Below are positions 2,317 to 13,605 of a stretch of 13,605 nucleotides of DNA, in pieces. The stretch spans positions 1 through 13,605 of the IMG/VR virus record IMGVR_UViG_2695420596_000001; one strand, 5' to 3'. The position numbers were made by a program, and so were the translations under genes. Source of the DNA: a virus (lineage: Duplodnaviria > Heunggongvirae > Uroviricota > Caudoviricetes). Each line of letters starts with the position of its first letter. The stretch's first letter is position 1. The notes beneath the pieces are model-generated. The model saw nothing but the letters and a program-made list of their open reading frames with translations. It searched no databases and had not been told where the DNA came from.

Positions 2317-2430
2317 ATGAAAGGCATTGAAGTGGAGACGCCAGCCAGTCTGGATTTAACAAGAGCGGCAGCTTTTGCCATTCGTATTGTGGCCATTGCT
2401 GTTCTGGTCTGGGCAATCCGTTGGTGGTGA
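2317..2430 (+). CDS. Small ORF (37 aa) with a C-terminal hydrophobic helix, stop codon abutting the Rz start
   Basis: ATG at 2317 with GAGG 9 nt upstream; translation MKGIEVETPASLDLTRAAAFAIRIVAIAVLVWAIRWW; its TGA (2428-2430) is followed one base later by the Rz ATG (2432). Not in the ORF track because it is under 60 aa. Confidence 0.3.
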   Translation: MKGIEVETPASLDLTRAAAFAIRIVAIAVLVWAIRWW

Positions 2431-2431
2431 T

Positions 2432-2899
2432 ATGAACCGTGTTCTGTGCGTGGTTATCATTGTCCTGCTGGTGGCCTGTGGTGCGCTTAGTCTGGGGCTG
2501 AATCATTACCGTGATCACGCCATCATCTACAAAGAGCAGCGCGATAAAAAAGCCAGTGAGCTGGAGCTGGCGAACGCGACAATTACTGATATGCAGATAC
2601 GCCAGCGTGATGTCGCTGCACTTGATGCCAGATACTCGAGGGAATTAGCCGATGCGAGAGCTGAAAATGAAACTCTGCGTGCTGATGTTGCCGCTGGTCG
2701 TAAGCGCCTGCGGATCAACGCCACCTGCTCCGGTACCGTGCGTGAAGCCACCGGCACCTCCGGCGTGGATAATGCAACCGGCCCCCGACTGGCAGACACC
2801 GCTGAACGGGATTATTTCATCCTCAGAGAACGGCTGATGGCAATGCAGAAGCAACTGGAAGGAGCACAGGAATATATCCGTACCCAGTGTATACCGTGA
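2432..2899 (+). CDS. Rz: Rz inner-membrane spanin (i-spanin), 155 aa
   Basis: Translation from ATG 2432 (MNRVLCVVIIVLLVACGALSLGLNHYRDHAIIYKEQRDK...RDVAALDARY...TAERDYFILRERL...) is collinear with lambda Rz as recalled: N-terminal TM helix then coiled-coil periplasmic domain. Confidence 0.85.
   Translation: MNRVLCVVIIVLLVACGALSLGLNHYRDHAIIYKEQRDKKASELELANATITDMQIRQRDVAALDARYSRELADARAENETLRADVAAGRKRLRINATCSGTVREATGTSGVDNATGPRLADTAERDYFILRERLMAMQKQLEGAQEYIRTQCIP
2652..2837 (+). CDS. Rz1: Rz1 outer-membrane lipoprotein spanin (o-spanin), embedded in the +1 frame of Rz
   Basis: MRELKMKLCVLMLPLVVSACGSTPPAPVPCVKPPAPPAWIMQPAPDWQTPLNGII... has a lipobox (VSAC) and a proline-rich mature region nearly collinear with lambda Rz1; it lies wholly inside Rz in another frame. 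Confidence 0.8.
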   Translation: MRELKMKLCVLMLPLVVSACGSTPPAPVPCVKPPAPPAWIMQPAPDWQTPLNGIISSSENG

Positions 2900-3234
2900 T
2901 ATTTTGTTATGAAGGTGTTACTGGTAACGTTAAGGTAATTTAACAAAGAGTCAGTTCCGGACTTTATAGTGTGCTCAGTTCATGGCCAAAAACGATTTCT
3001 GTGATAAATATTTTGAATATTATTTACAGGTAAATGGAGTGGGGCACATGGATAGAAATATTACAATAGAGAATGAAGTATATGCCCGTATTGTATGGGC
3101 AGAGAAGGCAAAAACACGGTAATTCCGTGTGTTGCCATGATACCTGATTGGCAGAATAGTTGTTTGGTTTTGAGTATATAGTCAGCGTTTTTTGTTCAGT
3201 AATTGCTCCCTCAAAAAATAATAAAACAAGGTGA

Positions 3235-3345
3235 TTATTTTTGTTTATTATTTAGTTTTTTTGTGTGTTGTTTTATTGTTTTTGCGTGGTTTGTTTTTTA
3301 TTGTTATTTCATTAAGGGAAGGTAAATTCAGGATGGCAGTCTGTA
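3235..3345 (+). promoter_or_regulatory. T-tract-rich upstream region and candidate promoter for the PerC-like gene
   Basis: Successive T-tracts (TTGTTTT-type repeats) across 3237-3306, followed by TTGTTA (3301-3306), a 16 bp spacer and TAAATT (3323-3328), then GGAGG (3353-3357) and ATG 3364. Confidence 0.3.
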
Positions 3346-3363
3346 GATAATCGGAGGTCACTT

Positions 3364-3678
3364 ATGCTACATGATCACGTGGCAGAATGTCTGGAGAAAA
3401 AAGGACTGTACCGGAGAGCAGCTGAACGATGGGCAAAAGTGATGGTACAGCTAAGTGATGACCAGAAAAGAAAAGTGGCGGCACAGAAACGAGCAGAGTG
3501 TTTGCGTAAGGCGCGCCGGACTCCGGTTTCACCGGTGAACCTGACCGAAATAAAACAAGCGGTCAACAGACTACATTCTGAGTTGGGAATGGGATTTGAA
3601 GAGCGGCGGGTATTCCGACGATATAAAGGGACAGGAGAACAGAATACGTCCGGAAACGCGCGGTCAAAAAAATGCTAA
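3364..3678 (+). CDS. PerC-family-like small transcriptional regulator (104 aa), prophage cargo gene
   Basis: N-terminus MLHDHVAECLEKKGLYRRAAERWAKVMVQ matches the pattern I associate with the PerC/Pch family (AE.LE..G..RRAA.RW..V). Good SD (GGAGG, 6 nt spacer). Family call is from memory of the motif, not a search. Confidence 0.45.
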   Translation: MLHDHVAECLEKKGLYRRAAERWAKVMVQLSDDQKRKVAAQKRAECLRKARRTPVSPVNLTEIKQAVNRLHSELGMGFEERRVFRRYKGTGEQNTSGNARSKKC

Positions 3679-3714
3679 AAAATATCTGAGAGCGTTATTG
3701 CCTGTTACCATAAG

Positions 3715-3741
3715 AAAAAGCGACTTTAGTGGTCGCTTTTT
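3715..3741. terminator. Bidirectional intrinsic terminator shared by the convergent PerC-like and RHH genes
   Basis: AAAAA-GCGAC-TTTAGTG-GTCGC-TTTTT; the stem is flanked by an A-run on one side and a T-run on the other, between the convergent stops at 3678 and 3760. Confidence 0.5.
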
Positions 3742-3759
3742 GTGTCATATATAAGTCGT

Positions 3760-3984
3760 TTAAGTAAACCTGTCTGAACAGGTGCTCTGGTCGTGTTTGT
3801 CTTTGTTGGGTACAAATTGAGCATGTTTTTCATTAATTAATCTTCTTCTGCAGGCTTCAATAACCCACGCTGAAAAATTACCTGAACCTTTCTGATCAAG
3901 AGCGATGTTAATTTGTTCAATCATTTGGTTAGGAAAGCGGATGTTGCGGGTTGTTTTTCTGCGGGTTCTGTTCTTCGTTGACAT
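3760..3984 (-). CDS. Ribbon-helix-helix (Arc/Mnt/CopG-type) DNA-binding protein, 74 aa
   Basis: MSTKNRTRRKTTRNIRFPNQMIEQINIALDQKGSGNFSAWVIEACRRRL...: an Arg-rich N-terminal arm, then a beta-strand/helix/helix pattern (IRFP..E.I..A...G.S.NFS..V.EA) typical of Arc/Mnt-like repressors. Confidence 0.6.
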   Translation of the reverse strand: MSTKNRTRRKTTRNIRFPNQMIEQINIALDQKGSGNFSAWVIEACRRRLINEKHAQFVPNKDKHDQSTCSDRFT

Positions 3985-4153
3985 GAGGTTGCCCCGTATT
4001 CAGTGTCGCTGATTTGTATTGTCTGAAGTTGTTTTTACGTTAAGTTGATGCAGATCAATTAATACGATACCTGCGTCATAATTAATTATTTGACGTGGTT
4101 TGATGGCGTAGATGCACGTTGTGACATGTAGATGATAATTATTATCATTTTGC

Positions 4154-4180
4154 GGGTCCTTTCCGGCGATCCGACAGGTT
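4154..4180 (+). other. cosQ-like element (terminase nicking/termination accessory site)
   Basis: GGGTCCTTTCCGGCGATCCGACAGGTT immediately upstream of cosN is essentially the sequence I recall preceding the lambda right cohesive end. Confidence 0.55.
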
Positions 4181-4183
4181 ACG

Positions 4184-4195
4184 GGGCGGCGACCT
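4184..4195 (+). other. cosN: 12 nt cohesive-end sequence GGGCGGCGACCT
   Basis: Exact match to the canonical lambda cohesive end, and the following ~45 nt (CGCGGGTTTTCGCTATTTATGAAAATTTTCCGG) match the lambda left end as recalled. It sits about 185 bp upstream of the terminase small subunit gene. Confidence 0.85.
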
Positions 4196-4217
4196 CGCGG
4201 GTTTTCGCTATTTATGA

Positions 4218-4335
4218 AAATTTTCCGGGATCCATGTCCGGTTTCTCTTCAAGTTAACTATATGAAAAATATAAAAACAGGTCTTCTGTGAACCGGACAT
4301 GAACAAAAAACAGACATGTAAACCGGACATGACCG
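4218..4335 (+). repeat. cosB-like terminase small-subunit binding region: three copies of AACCGGACATG (one inverted, two direct) around an A/T-rich block
   Basis: Inverted copy at about 4220-4233 (CCATGTCCGGTTTC), direct copies at 4291-4302 and 4321-4332, with an A/T-rich segment (4240-4288) between the first and second. This R3-I1-R2-R1 architecture is classic for lambdoid cosB, but the repeat sequence is not the lambda one. Confidence 0.5.
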
Positions 4336-4378
4336 GTTTTGTTGTGATTGTGAGGTGAGAGTTTTTGCGAGGTGAGGA

Positions 4379-4888
4379 GTGGCTACGCAGACTGAAGTTG
4401 CCAGGCATTTAAGTCTGACCGATCGCCAGCTTCGCAGATTGCAGAAATTGCCGGGTGCCCCGATATCGAATAAGCGAGGGCAACTGGATCTGGATGCCTG
4501 GCGCGATTTTTACATATCGTATCTGAGGAGAAGTAAAAACGATGTGCCTGATGGCGATAGCGAAGACGACTATGAGGAGAAATTGCTTATTGCCAGATGG
4601 GAACTGACAGCAGAACAGGCTGTTACACAGCAGTTAAAAAATGAGGTGTCAAAAGGAAAACTTATTGACACCGGGTTCTGTATTTTTGCCCTCAGTAAGC
4701 TGGCAATGGCGTTATCCAGTACGCTTGATTCCATCCCTTTATCCATGCAGCGACAGTTTCCTGATTTAACACCGCGCCATCTTGACCATCTGAAAACCCT
4801 TATTGCTAAGGGGGCAAATCAGTGTGCGCGGGCAGGGGATAAATTACCGGATTTACTCGATGAATATATCAGAGCAACAACTGAATAA
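4379..4888 (+). CDS. nu1: Terminase small subunit (Nu1-like), 169 aa
   Basis: GTG start with AGGTGA SD. N-terminal HTH-like segment and C-terminal region (TGFCIFALSKLAMALSSTLDSIPLSMQRQFPDLTPRHLDHL...LPDLLDEYI) are collinear with lambda Nu1 as recalled. Overlaps the large subunit gene. Confidence 0.85.
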   Translation: MATQTEVARHLSLTDRQLRRLQKLPGAPISNKRGQLDLDAWRDFYISYLRRSKNDVPDGDSEDDYEEKLLIARWELTAEQAVTQQLKNEVSKGKLIDTGFCIFALSKLAMALSSTLDSIPLSMQRQFPDLTPRHLDHLKTLIAKGANQCARAGDKLPDLLDEYIRATTE

Positions 4889-6788
4889 TATGATGGCTGC
4901 CGTTTCGGTTGCGCTGCAGCCTCTGGTCAGGGTTGTACCAATGACGGCAGTTGAATGGGCTGATCAAAATTATTATCTGCCTAAAGAATCTTCATATGGT
5001 GAGGGAGAATGGAAAACGCTGCCATTCCAGATCGCCATTATGAACTGTATGGGTAACGACCAGGTTCGCACGGTTAACCTGATTAAATCTGCCCGTGTTG
5101 GCTATACAAAGATGTTGCTGGGGGTGGTCGGGTATTTTATTGAGCATAAATCCCGAAACAGTCTGCTTTTTCAGCCCACGGATTCTGCCGCTGAAGATTT
5201 TATGAAGTCTCACGTGGAGGCGACGATTCGGAACGTGCCATGCCTGAAAGACCTTTCCCCATGGCTGGGTCGTAAACATCGTGACAATACTCTCACGCTG
5301 AAACGCTTTTCATCGGGCGTCGGTTTCTGGTGCCTGGGCGGTGCAGCCGCCAAAAACTACCGTGAAAAATCCGTGGACGTGGTCTGCTATGACGAGCTTT
5401 CCTCGTTCGAGCCGGATGTCGAAAAAGAGGGCTCGCCAACCCTGCTGGGGGATAAGCGTATTGAGGGCTCTGTATGGCCAAAATCCATTCGCGGCTCGAC
5501 GCCTAAAATCAAAGGTACCTGCCAGATCGAAAAAGCGGCCAACGAGTCGGCGCATTTCATGCGTTTCTATGTGCCCTGCCCGCACTGTGGGGAGGCGCAG
5601 TATCTGAAATTTGGCGATGAATCCACGCCTTTTGGCCTTAAATGGGAGAAGGACAGCCCCGAAAGCGTTTTCTACCTCTGTGAACATCATGGCTGCGTGA
5701 TCCATCAGTCTGAGCTTGACCAGAGTAACGGGCGCTGGATCTGTGAAAACACGGGTATGTGGACCCGTGACGGCCTGATGTTTTTCAGCGCCCGGGGGGA
5801 TGAAATTCCGCCGCCGCGCTCCATCACGTTCCATATCTGGACGGCGTACAGTCCGTTCACCACCTGGATACAGATAGTCTATGACTGGCTGGATGCACTG
5901 AAAGATCCCAACGGCCTGAAAACCTTTGTGAACACCACGCTGGGCGAGACCTGGGAAGAGGCCGTGGGCGAAAAACTCGATCACCAGGTACTGATGGATA
6001 AGGTGGTGCGTTACACGGCGGCGGTGCCTGCCCGGGTGGTTTATCTGACGGCGGGCATTGACTCGCAGCGAAACCGTTTTGAGATGTATGTCTGGGGATG
6101 GGCACAGGGAGAGGAAGCCTTTCTGGTGGATAAAATCATCATTATGGGCCGTCCCGATGAGGAAGAGACGCTGTTACGTGTGGATGCGGCGATCAACAAA
6201 AAATACTGCCATGCAGACGGAACCGAAATGACCATTTCCCGTGTCTGCTGGGACACCGGGGGGATCGATGGTGAAATTGTCTATCAGAGGTCAAAAAAAC
6301 ACGGTGTTTTCCGGGTGCTGCCGGTAAAAGGCGCATCTGTCTATGGCAAGCCGGTGATCACCATGCCGAAAACCCGCAATCAGCGGGGCGTGTATCTGTG
6401 TGAAGTGGGGACGGACACCGCAAAAGAAATTCTCTATGCCCGTATGAAAGCCGATCCCACTCCTGCGGATGAAGCCACGTCGTATGCCATCCGTTTTCCT
6501 GATGATCCGGAGATTTTTTCGCAGACAGAGGCGCAGCAACTGGTCGCGGAAGAGCTTGTGGAGAAGTGGGAAAAAGGAAAGATGCGTCTGCTGTGGGATA
6601 ACAAAAAGCGGCGTAACGAAGCGCTGGACTGCCTGGTGTATGCCTACGCGGCATTACGTGTGTCCGTGCAACGCTGGCAGCTTGATCTGGCTGTACTGGC
6701 AAAATCCCGGGAAGAAGAGACGACCCGGCCAACCCTGAAAGAACTGGCAGCGAAGCTGTCCGGAGGAGTGAATGGTTACAGTCGCTGA
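4860..6788 (+). CDS. A: Terminase large subunit (gpA-like), about 642 aa from ATG 4860
   Basis: Strong collinearity with lambda gpA (AVEWADQNYYLPKES..., KSARVGYTKMLL..., GSVWPKSIRGSTPK..., TAYSPFTTW..., WDNKKRRNEALDC...). The ORF-track start at 4803 is an upstream in-frame alternative; MNISEQQ at 4860 matches the lambda A N-terminus MNISNSQ. Confidence 0.93.
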   Translation: MNISEQQLNNMMAAVSVALQPLVRVVPMTAVEWADQNYYLPKESSYGEGEWKTLPFQIAIMNCMGNDQVRTVNLIKSARVGYTKMLLGVVGYFIEHKSRNSLLFQPTDSAAEDFMKSHVEATIRNVPCLKDLSPWLGRKHRDNTLTLKRFSSGVGFWCLGGAAAKNYREKSVDVVCYDELSSFEPDVEKEGSPTLLGDKRIEGSVWPKSIRGSTPKIKGTCQIEKAANESAHFMRFYVPCPHCGEAQYLKFGDESTPFGLKWEKDSPESVFYLCEHHGCVIHQSELDQSNGRWICENTGMWTRDGLMFFSARGDEIPPPRSITFHIWTAYSPFTTWIQIVYDWLDALKDPNGLKTFVNTTLGETWEEAVGEKLDHQVLMDKVVRYTAAVPARVVYLTAGIDSQRNRFEMYVWGWAQGEEAFLVDKIIIMGRPDEEETLLRVDAAINKKYCHADGTEMTISRVCWDTGGIDGEIVYQRSKKHGVFRVLPVKGASVYGKPVITMPKTRNQRGVYLCEVGTDTAKEILYARMKADPTPADEATSYAIRFPDDPEIFSQTEAQQLVAEELVEKWEKGKMRLLWDNKKRRNEALDCLVYAYAALRVSVQRWQLDLAVLAKSREEETTRPTLKELAAKLSGGVNGYSR

Positions 6789-6978
6789 ACTACAGGCGCT
6801 ACGTCAGGCGCGCCTTGATTTATTAACCGGTAAACGGGTGGTGTCTGTCCAGAAAGATGGTCGCAGAATTGAATATACGGCGGCTTCTCTGGATGAGCTT
6901 AACCGGGCGATCAATGATGCGGAGTCGGTACTGGGGACAACCCGACGTCGCCGTCGTCCGCTGGGAGTGAGGTTATGA
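6772..6978 (+). CDS. W: Head-stabilisation / head-tail joining protein W-like, 68 aa
   Basis: LTGKRVVSVQKDGRRIEYTAASL...RRRRRP parallels lambda gpW ([23 protein letters not shown]...QRRRGP); same length; overlaps the terminase stop and the portal start (ATGA). Confidence 0.85.
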   Translation: MVTVAELQALRQARLDLLTGKRVVSVQKDGRRIEYTAASLDELNRAINDAESVLGTTRRRRRPLGVRL

Positions 6979-8672
6979 AACGAACGCCTGTCCTGATTGA
7001 TGTGAACGGCGTTCCGCTTCGTGAGAGTCTCAGCTACAACGGGGGCGGCGCAGGATTTGGCGGGCAAATGGCGGAGTGGTTGCCACCGGCGCAGAGTGCC
7101 GATGCAGCCCTGCTGCCTGCGTTGCGTCTGGGGAATGCCCGGGCAGATGATCTGGTGCGCAATAACGGGATAGCGGCCAATGCGGTGGCCCTGCATAAGG
7201 ATCATATTGTCGGGCATATGTTTCTGATCAGCTACCGTCCGAACTGGCGCTGGCTGGGGATGCGGGAGACTGCGGCAAAAAGTTTTGTCGATGAGGTGGA
7301 GGCGGCCTGGTCGGAATACGCCGAAGGGATGTCTGGCGAGATCGACGTGGAAGAGAAACGCACGTTTACGGAATTTATTCGTGAAGGTGTGGGCGTTCAT
7401 GCGTTTAACGGCGAAATCTTTGTGCAGCCGGTCTGGGATACGGAGAGCACGCAACTGTTTCGTACGCGTTTTAAAGCCGTGAGTCCGAAACGGGTGGACA
7501 CGCCAGGACACGGTATGGGGAACCGTTTTCTGCGGGCCGGGGTGGAGGTCGATCGATATGGCCGTGCCGTTGCGTACCATATCTGTGAGGATGATTTTCC
7601 GTTCTCTGGTAGTGGACGATGGGAACGGATCCCGCGTGAACTACCCACCGGGCGTCCGGCCATGCTGCATATTTTCGAGCCGGTGGAGGACGGGCAGACC
7701 CGTGGGGCTAATCAGTTTTACAGCGTCATGGAACGGCTGAAGATGCTGGATTCCCTGCAGGCAACACAGCTTCAGTCGGCCATTGTGAAAGCCATGTATG
7801 CAGCGACGATTGAAAGTGAACTTGATACCGAAAAGGCCTTTGAATATATCGCCGGTGCGCCGCAGGGGCAGAAGGATAATCCGCTTATTAATATTCTGGA
7901 TAAGTTCTCCACCTGGTATGACACGAATAACGTGACGCTGGGCGGTGTCAAAATTCCGCACCTTTTCCCCGGTGATGATCTGAAACTGCAGACTGCGCAG
8001 GATTCAGACAATGGATTTTCGGCGCTTGAACAGGCGCTGCTGCGGTATATCGCCGCCGGTCTTGGCGTTTCCTACGAACAGTTGTCCCGGGATTACTCGA
8101 AGGTCAGTTATTCAAGTGCCCGCGCCTCCGCCAATGAGTCGTGGCGCTATTTTATGGGACGACGAAAATTTATTGCGTCCCGGCTGGCCACGCAGATGTT
8201 TTCCTGCTGGCTGGAAGAGGCACTTCTTCGGGGGATTATTCGTCCGCCACGGGCGCGTTTTGATTTTTATCAGGCGCGATCAGCCTGGTCACGGGCTGAG
8301 TGGATTGGAGCCGGAAGAATGGCCATTGACGGGCTCAAGGAAGTCCAGGAATCAGTGATGCGCATTGAGGCCGGACTGAGCACGTATGAGAAAGAGCTGG
8401 CGCTGATGGGCGAGGATTATCAGGACATTTTCCGCCAGCAGGTCAGGGAATCTGCTGAGCGACAAAAAGCCGGACTCTCACGTCCGGTGTGGATAGCGCA
8501 GGCGTATGAGCAGCAGATAGCGGAGAGTCGCAGGCCGGTACCGGGGTTTCTCTTTAGCATGGCAGAAATGTGTTTCATGCTTTTCGGGCGAAGGATATCC
8601 GACTTCTGTACGGAATGGCAAGTGGCGGTTAATTTATTCAGGGGAAGGCTGTATGGGAAAAGGTGGCGGTAA
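6975..8672 (+). CDS. B: Portal protein (gpB-like), 565 aa, with a non-homologous C-terminal ~45 aa extension
   Basis: Collinear with lambda gpB across most of its length ([11 protein letters not shown]..., [13 protein letters not shown]..., [17 protein letters not shown]..., [13 protein letters not shown]..., STYEKE...). From roughly residue 520 the sequence (...[45 protein letters not shown]) has no counterpart in lambda B and runs into the J start. Confidence 0.85.
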
Positions 8673-11600
8673 GGCACACACGCCTCGTGAGGCGAAGGAT
8701 AATCTCAAATCCACGCAGATGATGAGTGTGATTGATGCGATTGGTGAGGGACCGATAGAAGGTCCGGTGAAGGGACTGCAGAGTATTCTGGTGAACAAAA
8801 CCCCACTGACGGACACGGACGGCAATCCCGTGATACACGGTGTGACGGCGGTCTGGCGCGCCGGGGAGCAGGAGCAGACACCACCGGAAGGCTTTGAGTC
8901 CTCCGGAGCTGAAACCGGACTGGGCGTGGAAGTGACGAAGGCAAAACCGGTGACGCGCACCATTACGTCCGCGAACATTGACCGCCTGCGGGTTACCTTC
9001 GGGGTGCAGTCACTGGTGCAGACCACGTCAAAGGGCGACCGTAATCCTTCCTCTGTCCGGATTCTGATTCAGTTACAGCGTAATGGCCGCTGGGTGACGG
9101 AAAAGGACGTCACCATTAACGGCAAGACCACCTCACAGTTCCTGGCCTCGGTGATTCTGGATAATCTGCCTCCCCGGCCCTTTAACATCCGGATGGTCAG
9201 GGAGACGGCGGACAGCACCACGGACCAGCTGCAGAATAAGACGCTGTGGTCGTCATACACCGAAATCATCGATGTGAAACAGTGCTACCCGAACACGGCC
9301 ATTGTGGGGCTGCAGGTGGATGCGGAGCAGTTCGGCGGCCAGCAGATGACGGTGAACTACCATATCCGCGGTCGCATCATCCAGGTACCGTCAAACTATG
9401 ACCCGGAAAAACGCACGTACAGCGGCATCTGGGACGGCAGCCTGAAACCGGCATACAGCAACAACCCGGCCTGGTGCCTGTGGGACATGCTGACTCACCC
9501 GCGCTACGGCATGGGAAAACGTCTGGTGGCGGCGGATGTTGACAAGTGGGCGCTGTATGCCATCGGGCAGTACTGCGACCAGACGGTCCCGGATGGTTTC
9601 GGGGGCACAGAGCCGCGGATGACCTTTAATGCGTACCTGTCACAACAGCGTAAGGCGTGGGACGTTCTCAGTGATTTCTGCTCGGCGATGCGCTGTATGC
9701 CGGTATGGAACGGCCAGACGCTGACGTTCGTTCAGGACCGCCCGTCGGATGTGGTGTGGCCGTACACCAACTGCGATGTGGTGGTGGATGATAACGGCGT
9801 GGGGTTTCGCTACAGCTTCAGCGCCCTGAAGGACCGCCACACGGCGGTGGAGGTGAATTACACCGACCCGCAGAACGGCTGGCAGACCTCCACGGAACTG
9901 GTGGAAGACCCGGAAGCCATACTGCGCTACGGGCGCAACCTGCTGAAGATGGATGCGTTCGGCTGCACCAGTCGCGGTCAGGCCCACCGTGCCGGGCTGT
10001 GGGTGATAAAGACCGGACTGCTGGAAACGCAGACGGTGGATTTCACGCTCGGGTCACAGGGGCTGCGTCACACACCCGGTGACATTATTGAAATCTGTGA
10101 TAACGACTATGCCGGGACCATGACCGGCGGACGTGTCCTGTCCATCGATGCCGCCAGCCGCACCCTGACGCTGGACCGTGAGGTGACACTGCCGGAGACC
10201 GGTGCCGCCACGGTGAACCTGATTAACGGCAGCGGTAAGCCGGTGAGTGTGGACATCACCGCACACCCCGCGCCGGACCGGATACAGGTCAGCACCCTGC
10301 CTGATGGTGTGGAGACATACGGTGTATGGGGACTCTCCCTGCCGTCACTGCGCCGTCGCCTGTTCCGCTGTGTCTCCGTCCGGGAAAACACGGACGGCAC
10401 CTTTGCCATCACGGCGGTGCAGCACGTACCGGAAAAAGAAGCCATCGTGGATAACGGTGCCCGCTTTGAGCCGCAGTCAGGCACCCTGAACAGCGTCATC
10501 CCTCCGGCAGTGCAGCACCTGACGGTGGAGGTGAGCGCAGCTGACGGCCAGTATCTGGCGCAGGTGAAATGGGACACGCCGCGGGTGGTGAAGGGCGTGC
10601 GCTTCAGTCTGCGCCTGACCAGTGGTAAGGGAACGGATGCCAGACTGGTGACCACCGCCATCACTGCGGATACAGAGCATCGTTTCAGTGGTCTGCCGCT
10701 CGGGGAATACACCCTGACAGTCAGGGCAATTAACAGTTATGGCCAGCAGGGGGAACCGGCCACCACCACGTTCAGGATTAATGCACCTGCGGTACCCGCC
10801 ACGATTGAGCTGACACCGGGCTATTTTCAGATAACAGCGGTCCCGCGTCTTGCCGTTTATGACCCGACGGTACAGTTTGAGTTCTGGTTCTCGGAAAAGC
10901 GGATTGCGGATATCAGGCAGGTTGAAACCGCAGCCCGCTATCTTGGCTCGGCGCTGTACTGGATAGCTGCCAGTATCAATATCAAACCGGGCCATGATTA
11001 TTATTTTTATATCCGCAGTGTGAATACTGTTGGCAAATCGGCATTCGTGGAGGCTGTCGGTCGGGCGAGCGATGATGCGGAAGGTTACCTGGATTTTTTC
11101 AAAGGAGAAATCGGGAAAACACATCTGGCCCAGGAGCTGTGGACGCAGATTGATAACGGTCAGCTTGCGCCGGACCTGGCTGAAATCAGGACGTCCATTA
11201 CGAATGTCAGCAATGAAATCACGCAGACCGTCAATAAAAAACTGGAAAATCAGAGTGCGGCAATCCAGCAGATACAGAAAGTTCAGGTTGATACAAATAA
11301 TAACCTGAACAGCATGTGGGCCGTGAAACTGCAGCAGATGCAGGACGGACGCCTTTATATTGCGGGTATCGGTGCCGGTATTGAGAATACGCCAGCAGGA
11401 ATGCAGAGTCAGGTGCTGCTGGCGGCAGACAGGATTGCGATGATTAATCCTGCGAATGGCAACACAAAGCCGATGTTTGTTGGTCAGGGCGATCAGATAT
11501 TTATGAATGAAGTGTTCCTGAAATATCTGACGGCTCCCACCATTACCAGCGGCGGTAATCCTCCGGCATTTTCCCTGACACCGGACGGGCGGCTGACGGC

Positions 11601-12126
11601 GAAAAATGCCGATATCAGCGGTAACGTGAATGCGAACTCCGGGACGCTCAACAACGTCACGATTAACGAGAACTGTCGGGTTCTGGGAAAATTGTCCGCG
11701 AACCAGATTGAAGGCGATCTCGTTAAAACAGTGGGCAAAGCTTTCCCCCGGGATTCCCGTGCACCGGAGCGGTGGCCATCAGGAACCATTACCGTCAGGG
11801 TTTATGACGATCAGCCGTTTGACCGGCAGATTGTTATTCCGGCGGTGGCATTCAGCGGCGCTAAACATGAGAAAGAGCATACTGATATTTACTCCTCATG
11901 CCGTCTGATAGTGCGGAAAAACGGTGCTGAAATTTATAACCGTACCGCGCTGGATAATACGCTGATTTACAGTGGTGTTATTGATATGCCTGCCGGTCAC
12001 GGTCACATGACACTGGAGTTTTCGGTGTCAGCATGGCTGGTAAATAACTGGTATCCCACAGCAAGTATCAGCGATTTGCTGGTTGTGGTGATGAAGAAAG
12101 CCACTGCAGGCATCACGATTAGCTGA
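8653..12126 (+). CDS. J: Tail tip / host-specificity protein J, 1157 aa
   Basis: Collinear with lambda gpJ from the N-terminus ([22 protein letters not shown]...) through the FN3-like region and conserved block ([40 protein letters not shown]). It diverges in a central segment and in the C-terminal receptor-binding region. Confidence 0.95.
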
Positions 12127-12144
12127 ATTTTATAACCCAGATAC

Positions 12145-12172
12145 GGGCGCCAGAAATGGCGCCTTTTTTATT
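12145..12172 (+). terminator. Intrinsic terminator downstream of J
   Basis: GGCGCCA-GAAA-TGGCGCC stem-loop followed by TTTTTTATT. Confidence 0.55.
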
Positions 12173-12193
12173 GCAGAAAAGCGAGAGGTAATT

Positions 12194-12793
12194 ATGCGTA
12201 AATTATGTGCTGTTATTTTGTCCGCAGTAGTCTGGCAGGTCGCCGCTGCTACGCCAGCGAGTGCAGCAGAACATCAGTCCACGCTGAGCGCGGGGTATCT
12301 CCATGCCTCGACGAACGTTCCCGGTAGTGATGATCTGAACGGGATTAACGTGAAATACCGTTATGAGTTTACGGACGCGCTGGGGCTGATTACGTCCTTC
12401 AGTTATGCCAATGCTGAGGATGAGCAAAAAACGCGCTACAGCGATACCCGCTGGCATGAAGATTCCGTGCGTAACCGCTGGTTCAGCGTGATGGCGGGGC
12501 CGTCTGTACGCGTGAATGAATGGTTCAGCGCGTATGCGATGGTGGGTGTGGCTTACAGCCGTGTGTCGACTTTCTCCGGGGATTATCTCCGCGTAACTGA
12601 CAACAAGGGGAAAACGCACGATGTGCTGACCGGAAGTGATGACGGTCGCCACAGCAACACGTCTCTGGCGTGGGGGGCTGGCGTGCAGTTTAACCCGACC
12701 GAATCCGTGACCATTGACCTTGCTTATGAAGGTTCCGGTAGTGGCGACTGGCGAACGGATGCATTTATTGTTGGTATCGGATACCGTTTCTGA
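12194..12793 (+). CDS. lom: Lom-like outer membrane protein (Ail/Lom family beta-barrel), 199 aa
   Basis: Signal peptide (MRKLCAVILSAVVWQVAAATPASA) and C-terminal ...AYEGSGSGDWRTDAFIVGIGYRF matching lambda Lom; conserved GINVKYRYE motif; position immediately after J as in lambda. Confidence 0.9.
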   Translation: MRKLCAVILSAVVWQVAAATPASAAEHQSTLSAGYLHASTNVPGSDDLNGINVKYRYEFTDALGLITSFSYANAEDEQKTRYSDTRWHEDSVRNRWFSVMAGPSVRVNEWFSAYAMVGVAYSRVSTFSGDYLRVTDNKGKTHDVLTGSDDGRHSNTSLAWGAGVQFNPTESVTIDLAYEGSGSGDWRTDAFIVGIGYRF

Positions 12794-12896
12794 CAACAGA
12801 CGCCGATTTATCTTCTGTAAATATTGTTATGATACGCAGGTTCATCCACCTTATGGGGTGAACTGCGTTTGAGGAAACGTAAAGTTACACTGTCCT

Positions 12897-12932
12897 GAAG
12901 CCCGTGGCGTCACTGCTGCGGGCTTTTTTTTA
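12897..12932 (+). terminator. Intrinsic terminator downstream of lom
   Basis: AAGCCCG ... CGGGCTT stem followed by a T8 run. Confidence 0.5.
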
Positions 12933-12945
12933 TTGGTGGAAAAGT

Positions 12946-13605
12946 ATGACAGTAAAAATTTCTGGCGTGCTTAAAGACGGCACAGGAAAACCGGTAGAGA
13001 ACTGCACCATTCAACTGAAAGCCAGACGGACCAGCAGCACGGTGGTGGTGAACACGGTGGCCTCTGAAAATCCGGATGAAGCCGGTCGTTACAGCATGGA
13101 CGTTGAGTACGGTCAGTACAGCGTCATTCTGTTGGTGGAGGGCTTCCCGCCGTCACATGCCGGGACCATCACCGTTTATGAAGATTCTCAACCCGGTACG
13201 CTGAATGATTTTCTCGGTGCCATGTCGGAGGATGACGTCCGGCCGGAGGCACTGCGCCGTTTTGAACTGATGGTGGAAGAGGTGGCGCGTCACGCTGAGG
13301 AGGCGAAGAAGAATGCCGGAGAGGCGGAGACGTCAGCGAGGAATGCCGGCATATCAGCCAGTCAGGCAGAAGAGAGCGCTGCAAATGCTGACACTTCAGC
13401 AGGGGAGGCATCGGAGTCAGCCCGGCAGGCGGCAGAAAGTGCAGCCTCAGCAAAGCAGTCAGAGGATGCGTCCTCGTCCTCGGCTTCTGCGGCCGCTCAA
13501 AAAGCCAGTGAGTCATCACAAAGTGCAGCAGAAGCTGAATTGTCAAGAAAGACGGCAGAAAGTGCAGCCGGTAATGCAGCCAGGGATGCAACGACCGCAA
13601 CAGAA
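12946..13605 (+). CDS. stf: Side tail fibre protein Stf, N-terminal 220 codons (3'-truncated by the window edge)
   Basis: MTVKISGVLKDGTGKPVENCTIQLKARRTSSTVVVNTVASENPDEAGRYSMDVEYGQYSVILLVEGFPPSHAGTITVYEDSQPGTLNDFL... is near-identical in pattern to the lambda Stf N-terminus, followed by the Ala/Ser/Glu-rich repeat region. GGTGGA SD. The frame is open to the window end. Confidence 0.9.
   Translation, partial: MTVKISGVLKDGTGKPVENCTIQLKARRTSSTVVVNTVASENPDEAGRYSMDVEYGQYSVILLVEGFPPSHAGTITVYEDSQPGTLNDFLGAMSEDDVRPEALRRFELMVEEVARHAEEAKKNAGEAETSARNAGISASQAEESAANADTSAGEASESARQAAESAASAKQSEDASSSSASAAAQKASESSQSAAEAELSRKTAESAAGNAARDATTATE

Follow-up and report, generated by a model that had tools for sequence, protein, structure and literature searches.

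The 13,605-bp stretch of DNA analysed here (IMG/VR record IMGVR_UViG_2695420596_000001; below, the window) carries the late region of a lambdoid prophage of Escherichia coli, in the gene order found in prophages of the enterohaemorrhagic and enteropathogenic type (EHEC/EPEC). The window is the whole of contig CXZG01000049.1 of the short-read draft assembly GCA_001283165.1, to which it was matched through an exact lookup of its fused portal open reading frame (ORF). It very probably represents part of an ordinary lambdoid E. coli prophage that has undergone a single, very recent deletion of 11.5 kb in one isolate. The parent would have been a lambdoid prophage of the effector type, whose intact form lies between potB and potC in E. 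coli fS25a. One illegitimate deletion would have removed the protease/scaffold, decoration, capsid and head-completion genes and all tail-shaft and tail-assembly genes, leaving cos, nu1, A, W, J, lom and stf untouched and giving the portal protein a foreign tail of 44 residues. The resulting element would no longer be able to make heads or tails, and its packaging genes would be intact because no mutations have accumulated since the deletion. The sequence-only reading of this stretch had described an element without a capsid that retains a complete packaging module, and had offered two explanations: packaging into capsids of a co-resident lambdoid helper, or a recent deletion that has not yet decayed.

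Deletion junction and intact counterpart

The intact counterpart occupies an interval of about 51.1 kb between potB and potC in the genome of E. coli fS25a (NZ_CM176579.1). This prophage has int and xis, shares the late genes of the window in the same order, and holds a full set of head and tail genes between portal and J. Aligned by blastn to the corresponding fS25a stretch (L006), positions 2426-8538 of the window match 2356-8469 and positions 8539-13605 match 20001-25067; relative to fS25a, 11,531 bp (L006 8470-20000) are absent at the junction 8538|8539. The missing segment begins 29 nt ahead of the portal stop codon and ends 114 nt short of J, on its upstream side; it includes the S49 protease/scaffold, decoration and major capsid genes, FI, FII, Z, U, V, G and T, the tape measure gene, and M, L, K and I. 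The portal ORF adjoins J directly and runs into it, and J is followed by lom and stf. The loss of morphogenetic genes reported by the sequence-only reading is thus confirmed for the head genes and most of the tail genes, and except for these essential genes the element is collinear with an intact prophage, as is characteristic of a defective lambdoid prophage.

Divergence from fS25a is close to nil in the sequence retained on both sides of the junction. Besides the deletion, the 10.3 kb from 3271 to 13605 contain one base difference, a substitution at position 13176 in the stf part, which is also the only one in 8539-13605; none falls within 3271-8538. Over positions 4000-8537, which take in cos with the sequence leading up to it, nu1, A, W and the native part of the portal gene (codons 1-521), there are 0 nt differences, and the J gene is 100% identical to its fS25a counterpart. 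Both flanks therefore match the same prophage at 99.98-100%, the lower value belonging to the J/lom/stf side. The remaining 37 differences are all confined to 2426-3270, in the Rz region and just downstream of it. This interval forms a mosaic boundary, and upstream of 3271 the window is mosaic relative to fS25a. Near-identical late regions are also present in strains CD45 and 2013C-4991; the blastn match to the CD45 stretch (L002) contains 18 mismatches and 1 gap over 8,539 nt.

All database matches to the left half of the window end at 8538, and all matches to the right half begin at 8539. The two breakpoints share 0 nt: the left parental sequence reads ...GGCCGG|AAGAGG, the right one ...GCTGA|TACCGGGG, and the window ...GGCCGG|TACCGGGG. 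The lack of shared bases at the joint points to illegitimate end-joining and argues against homologous or microhomology-mediated recombination; for the same reason an assembler could not have built the join from a shared repeat. A CCGG microhomology was considered as the cause of the deletion and rejected, since both copies of CCGG are still present in the window.

The right breakpoint falls inside a hairpin of the spacer between genes I and J (CCCCGGTATC...GATACCGGGG, then T-rich sequence). The hairpin (window 8539-8556; L006 19985-20017) is GC-rich, is accompanied by T-runs on both strands, and lies within a spacer of 341 nt; by its sequence it looks like a bidirectional terminator. The same spacer carries a minus-strand sodC gene in the related prophage of E. 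coli TB4019 (NZ_AP038817.1; stretch L005).

In 5,426 complete E. coli genomes nothing spans the junction, and the 24-mer across it, GTCGCAGGCCGGTACCGGGGTTTC, has 0 matches in 2.9 million IMG/VR contigs and in the JGI metagenome collection. The fused portal protein occurs on only one NCBI contig and one Logan contig, in contrast to the identical gpA protein, found on 259 contigs, and the identical Nu1 protein, found on at least 1000. The Logan contig, ERR124658_476 (L004; 4,012 nt), was assembled independently and matches window positions 4866-8877 at 100%, with the junction in mid-contig. Together with the absence of any shared sequence at the joint, this match indicates that the junction is real and does not result from a repeat-mediated assembly join. 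It appears to be private to one isolate, for which literature searches under GCA_001283165 and ERR124658 found no papers. The rarity of the junction and the near-identity to fS25a therefore mark the deletion as both private and recent, and of the two explanations first offered it is the recent deletion, not yet decayed, that is borne out.

Several considerations weigh against this interpretation. The NCBI and Logan contigs could both stem from a single isolate, or even from one set of reads, and the junction is known from assemblies. The element is represented only by a contig of 13.6 kb, with the integrase, replication, Q and repressor genes lying outside the window. That the deletion is "very recent" is judged from identity to a single complete genome, and exchange with a co-resident prophage, by gene conversion or recombination, could likewise have removed divergence.

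The retained packaging module

The packaging module was originally described as complete, comprising cosQ, cosN and cosB followed by nu1, A, W and the portal gene. This description stands for cosQ, cosN, nu1, A and W, which are present at full length. It requires amendment for cosB, which is suggested by repeats, and for the portal gene, which loses its last 9 codons and gains 44.

The portal fusion ORF (6975-8672, plus strand, with its stop codon at 8672, the end given by the sequence-only reading) encodes 565 amino acids and matches PF05136 over residues 29-397. Residues 1-521 are native (6975-8537). Intact relatives are 530 amino acids long and end in ...SRRPEEETTPRET; in the fusion, the nine terminal residues of the native protein, EEETTPRET, are replaced by residues 522-565, 44 codons read through from the former I-J spacer, which is normally non-coding. 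One member of the portal cluster with 521 amino acids (P0007) was considered as a second truncation allele and rejected, as it has a shorter start call and a native C-terminus.

The cos region extends over about 4150-4340. Positions 3985-4228 are collinear and ungapped with positions -198 to +45 of lambda in a global alignment against the joined lambda ends, with a handful of substitutions that all lie upstream; from -16 to +45 (4168-4228) the two sequences are identical. The plus-strand heptamer GGGTCCT, the cosQ of lambda, occupies 4154-4160, 30 to 24 nt upstream of the start of the cohesive end, and is the same as in lambda at an equal offset. The 12-nt cohesive-end sequence of cosN, GGGCGGCGACCT, is found on the plus strand at 4184-4195 as an exact match to lambda and occurs once.

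From lambda position +46 on, the sequence of the window is unrelated to lambda cosB. The segment at 4229-4339 (plus strand) contains instead three repeats of the CCGGACATG type, one inverted (4233-4244) and two direct (4287-4302 and 4317-4332), and an A/T-rich spacer sets them apart. In lambda cosB, R3, R2 and R1 are likewise arranged with one repeat inverted and the other two direct, although the repeat sequences are unrelated; between the repeats of the window, no consensus for integration host factor (IHF) is found at up to 1 mismatch. By this layout, 4229-4339 plausibly represents cosB. In a comparison with the TB4019 prophage, the repeats co-vary with the N-terminal domain of Nu1.

The TB4019 prophage matches the window on either side of this region (at 99% and 96%) but not inside it. 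About 100 C-terminal residues of its Nu1 are identical to those of the window Nu1, with an unrelated N-terminus and unrelated cosB repeats. The putative cosB and the Nu1 N-terminal DNA-binding domain (window 4225-4591, nu1 codons 1-71; L005 6234-6629) act as one exchangeable specificity cassette.

The terminase small subunit gene nu1 (4379-4888, plus strand, GTG start) encodes 169 amino acids. It matches PF07471 over residues 49-150 (E=1e-18), the domain covering only the C-terminal two thirds of the protein. The N-terminal DNA-binding part does not resemble its counterparts in lambda, 21 or phi80, and its nearest full-length relatives among phage records belong to Pseudomonas phages (43%). 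Five PhiR12-series records contain the same Nu1, with 99% identity or above; each was submitted as a complete phage genome, and the hosts they give are laboratory E. coli strains. A literature search on PhiR12 returned nothing relevant.

The large subunit gene A (4860-6788, plus strand) starts at the ATG at 4860, not at the TTG at 4803, and encodes a full-length protein of 642 amino acids with matches to PF05876 and PF20454; these and the PF07471 match all exceed their cut-offs. The protein aligns end to end with lambda gpA (641 amino acids) at 66% identity, and its C-terminal prohead-binding tail differs from that of lambda. The original statement that the terminase ORFs are of full length and free of frameshifts is correct for this collinear gpA and for the 169-residue Nu1. 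Inactivating changes in terminase motifs had been named as evidence that would speak against packaging, and inspection of the motifs discloses none. The residues kept relative to lambda are Y46, K76-Y82 (Walker A), K84, D178, E179, G212-S213-T214, D401 and G491-P498, including K497. In lambda these residues are required for the ATPase and nuclease functions, and all of them are conserved. The head-tail adaptor gene W (6772-6978, plus strand) is also of full length, with 68 amino acids and a match to PF02831. On this sequence evidence the window terminase is apparently functional, and the conserved catalytic residues of gpA, together with the occurrence of the same nu1/cos type in deposited phage genomes, suggest that the packaging module is functional in kind.

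Intact reading frames over the module had been proposed to argue for either recency or selection. The first part of this proposition is sound, as recency is a sufficient explanation for the intact frames. The second part fails: since there are zero substitutions on the branch that follows the deletion, the frames carry no signal of selection and are uninformative on it, for or against. A comparison of nonsynonymous and synonymous substitution rates (dN/dS) of nu1 and A with orthologues had been put forward as a check. Only diverged phage orthologues are available for this calculation, which is uninformative for the post-deletion branch. Against PhiR12_1, dN/dS is 0.115 for A, 0.072 for W and 0.076 for the portal gene, and 0 of 4 changes in nu1 are nonsynonymous. 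The low values (0-0.12) reflect purifying selection during the phage history of the family, not after the deletion.

Possible mobilisation and alternative explanations

Helper-dependent packaging of the element is possible in principle: its own terminase would cut its own cos, and proheads would come from a co-resident lambdoid. Packaging would run from cosN rightwards through nu1. It would require excision and replication functions, activation of the late genes, and proheads with a portal recognised by the C-terminus of the window gpA, and the helper would further have to contribute tails and the proteins that complete heads. Provided that the remainder of the element corresponds to fS25a, its size can be estimated at about 51.1 kb minus 11.5 kb, or about 39.6 kb. 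Lambda-type heads accept a range of 78-105%, and the estimate therefore lies within their size limits.

A precedent exists in the O157 Sakai strain. Particle DNA resistant to DNase was found there for prophages Sp4, Sp9, Sp13 and Sp15, whose defects lie in head formation or packaging; Sp6, likewise defective and packaged, was in addition transferred to K-12 (PMC2669165). The idea of mobilisation is accordingly not new, as complementation has already been shown for defective Sakai prophages. With this precedent, the cos-dependent helper packaging proposed by the sequence-only reading is sound as a principle, but nothing in the sequence indicates that it operates, or is selected for, in this element.

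A stronger version of the idea would hold the element to be a selected, satellite-like entity that has kept cos and terminase for routine mobilisation by the capsids and tails of helper lambdoids, with the deletion as adaptive streamlining. We regard this as very unlikely. In its favour, cos, nu1 and A are undamaged and belong to a type known from deposited phage genomes; at the predicted size of about 39.6 kb, a lambda-type head could still take up the element; and complementation can lead to the packaging of defective lambdoid prophages (PMC2669165). Other lambdoids may also be present in the isolate, as is weakly hinted by the ends of the contigs. Those of the window are sequences that are multi-copy in E. 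coli genomes, and the Logan contig breaks off at codon 3 of A (window 4866) and codon 75 of J (8877). The Logan breaks are probably k-mer branch points and would suggest a co-resident lambdoid with a related terminase and J.

These points are outweighed by the form of the deletion and by its lack of history. Zero divergence from the intact prophage over the retained module leaves no signal of maintenance, and the junction appears to be private to one isolate. The same event damaged the portal and spared J, lom and stf; the cut runs through a gene and a hairpin and looks arbitrary, following no module border. No satellite-exclusive or interference gene is seen in the window, and the element, collinear with a 51-kb prophage bar one deletion, does not resemble an island of 10-19 kb. 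Nor is there a recurrent pattern in which only packaging is kept, as a related prophage keeps its heads and loses its tails. In this TB4019-type prophage a different deletion joins FII to a 3' fragment of the tail gene I (L005 14338-15384); all head genes and J are retained, the tail shaft genes are lost, and the same deletion is present in four chicken isolates. Deletions in the late region thus recur independently and at different breakpoints, with no consistent retention of packaging alone.

It is likewise very improbable that the element is a nascent helper-dependent transducing element, at the first step from prophage to satellite, which excises, replicates and loads its genome of about 40 kb into helper proheads through its own cosB specificity. 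Were that so, the abnormal portal protein might disturb assembly of the helper.

Two further alternatives concern the origin of the junction. An assembly chimera, in which the portal end and the J region would come from different prophages, might be suspected in a short-read draft of a genome that likely holds several similar lambdoid prophages, particularly as the junction is present in no complete genome. It is nonetheless extremely unlikely: with 0 nt of microhomology there is no path across the joint in a k-mer graph unless reads span it, the second assembly (Logan ERR124658_476) shows the very same junction midway along a 4-kb contig, and both flanks match one intact prophage at 99.98-100%. 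Least probable of all is illegitimate recombination between two co-resident prophages, leading to a larger chromosomal deletion or inversion, for although the pathotype carries several near-identical lambdoids (a median of 4 matching places per genome, and up to 25) and the window shows mosaicism against fS25a in the part upstream of 3271, both flanks are identical or nearly so to the same fS25a prophage, in the same orientation and order, making a single deletion within one element the most economical explanation.

Neighbouring genes and relation to known systems

Upstream of cos, the late region includes genes for a holin (669-875), a lysozyme (1563-2096) and an Rz-like lysis protein (2432-2899), followed by a PerC homologue (3364-3678) and, on the minus strand, a YlcI/DUF3950 gene (3760-3984). 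The PerC-family regulator homologue and the divergently oriented YlcI/YnfO (DUF3950) gene lie between the lysis cassette and cos, in a moron position kept in many EHEC/EPEC prophages. Upstream of the PerC homologue, about 460 nt (2900-3363) contain no ORF of 50 or more amino acids, have a GC content of about 0.37 and bear long T-rich runs. A 24-codon ORF (3049-3123) followed by a hairpin is situated inside this stretch, which has no Rfam match. Downstream of the junction, on the plus strand, the window contains J, the tail tip attachment protein gene (8653-12126; 1157 amino acids, intact, with six GpJ Pfam domains), lom, encoding an Ail/Lom outer-membrane protein (12194-12793; 199 amino acids), and the N-terminal part of the side tail fibre gene stf (12946-13605; PF08400), which the end of the contig truncates. 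Neither Rfam nor tRNA scans of the window gave matches, and promoter and terminator scans of 2800-9000 were not informatively above shuffled expectation.

The fS25a prophage, identical from cos through nu1, A and W to portal codon 521, still has the 11,531 bp taken up by head and tail genes and differs at 37 positions in the Rz region. In the fS25a stretches L006 26109-31972 and L009 10001-10741, it carries type III secretion system (T3SS) effector genes downstream of its tail fibres, among them a frameshifted espW, DUF1076/NleG-like genes and a gene of the WxxxE family, as well as an ISCro1 insertion, and its gene for a replication ATP-binding protein has an internal stop. By its sequence this "intact" parent may itself be replication-defective. 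With lambda the window shares cosQ, cosN, the order and sizes of the genes, and a gpA with the ATPase and nuclease residues kept. It differs from lambda in the sequence of the cosB repeats, in the N-terminal domain of Nu1 and in the C-terminal tail of gpA, and in having no IHF consensus at up to 1 mismatch.

The closest parallels are the defective lambdoids of the Sakai type (Sp4, Sp6, Sp9 and Sp15; Asadulghani et al. 2009, PMC2669165). They share the late region, from lysis genes through cos, nu1, A, W and portal and on to J, lom and stf, and they likewise combine a morphogenetic deletion with virulence accessory genes, represented here by the PerC homologue in the window and the T3SS effectors in the fS25a counterpart. 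The deletion from portal codon 522 to the I-J spacer is found nowhere else in the collections searched. The Sakai prophages were packaged, and some transferred, through complementation by co-residents.

Satellites of the cos type, such as P4 and Gram-negative phage-inducible chromosomal islands (PICIs) of the EcCICFT073 type (PMC6092414, PMC6739421), carry cos and need helper capsids and tails, as the present element would. PICIs are characterised by their own att sites, exclusive genes, induction triggered by the helper, a conserved organisation of the replication origin, interference and specific packaging (PMC6092414), and in E. coli PICIs the protein Rpp redirects the small terminase of the helper (PMC6739421). 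They are small islands without lambda-type Nu1 and gpA; the present element, by contrast, is a prophage minus one block, with a complete terminase of its own. The genes called in the window are all ordinary lambdoid late genes, with no Rpp-type redirector, capsid-size remodelling, helper interference or primase-replicase gene and no AlpA/Stl-type regulator among them. A conserved family with the same boundaries across lineages, as expected of a satellite, is absent from the 5,426 genomes, IMG/VR and the JGI metagenomes. On the gene content of the window, then, the element is to be classed as a defective prophage and not as a satellite.

The element illustrates how such remnants are to be read. 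Intact ORFs in a prophage remnant are no evidence of selection when an intact parent of identical sequence exists; the 3' end of a seemingly complete gene beside a deletion needs to be checked; and a contig of a draft assembly should not be equated with the element it samples. In pathogenic E. coli, lambdoid prophages bearing deletions abound, and there is earlier documentation that co-resident prophages rescue them. If packaging of the present element were to prove true, it would add one more case of effector-gene mobilisation through complementation between prophages.

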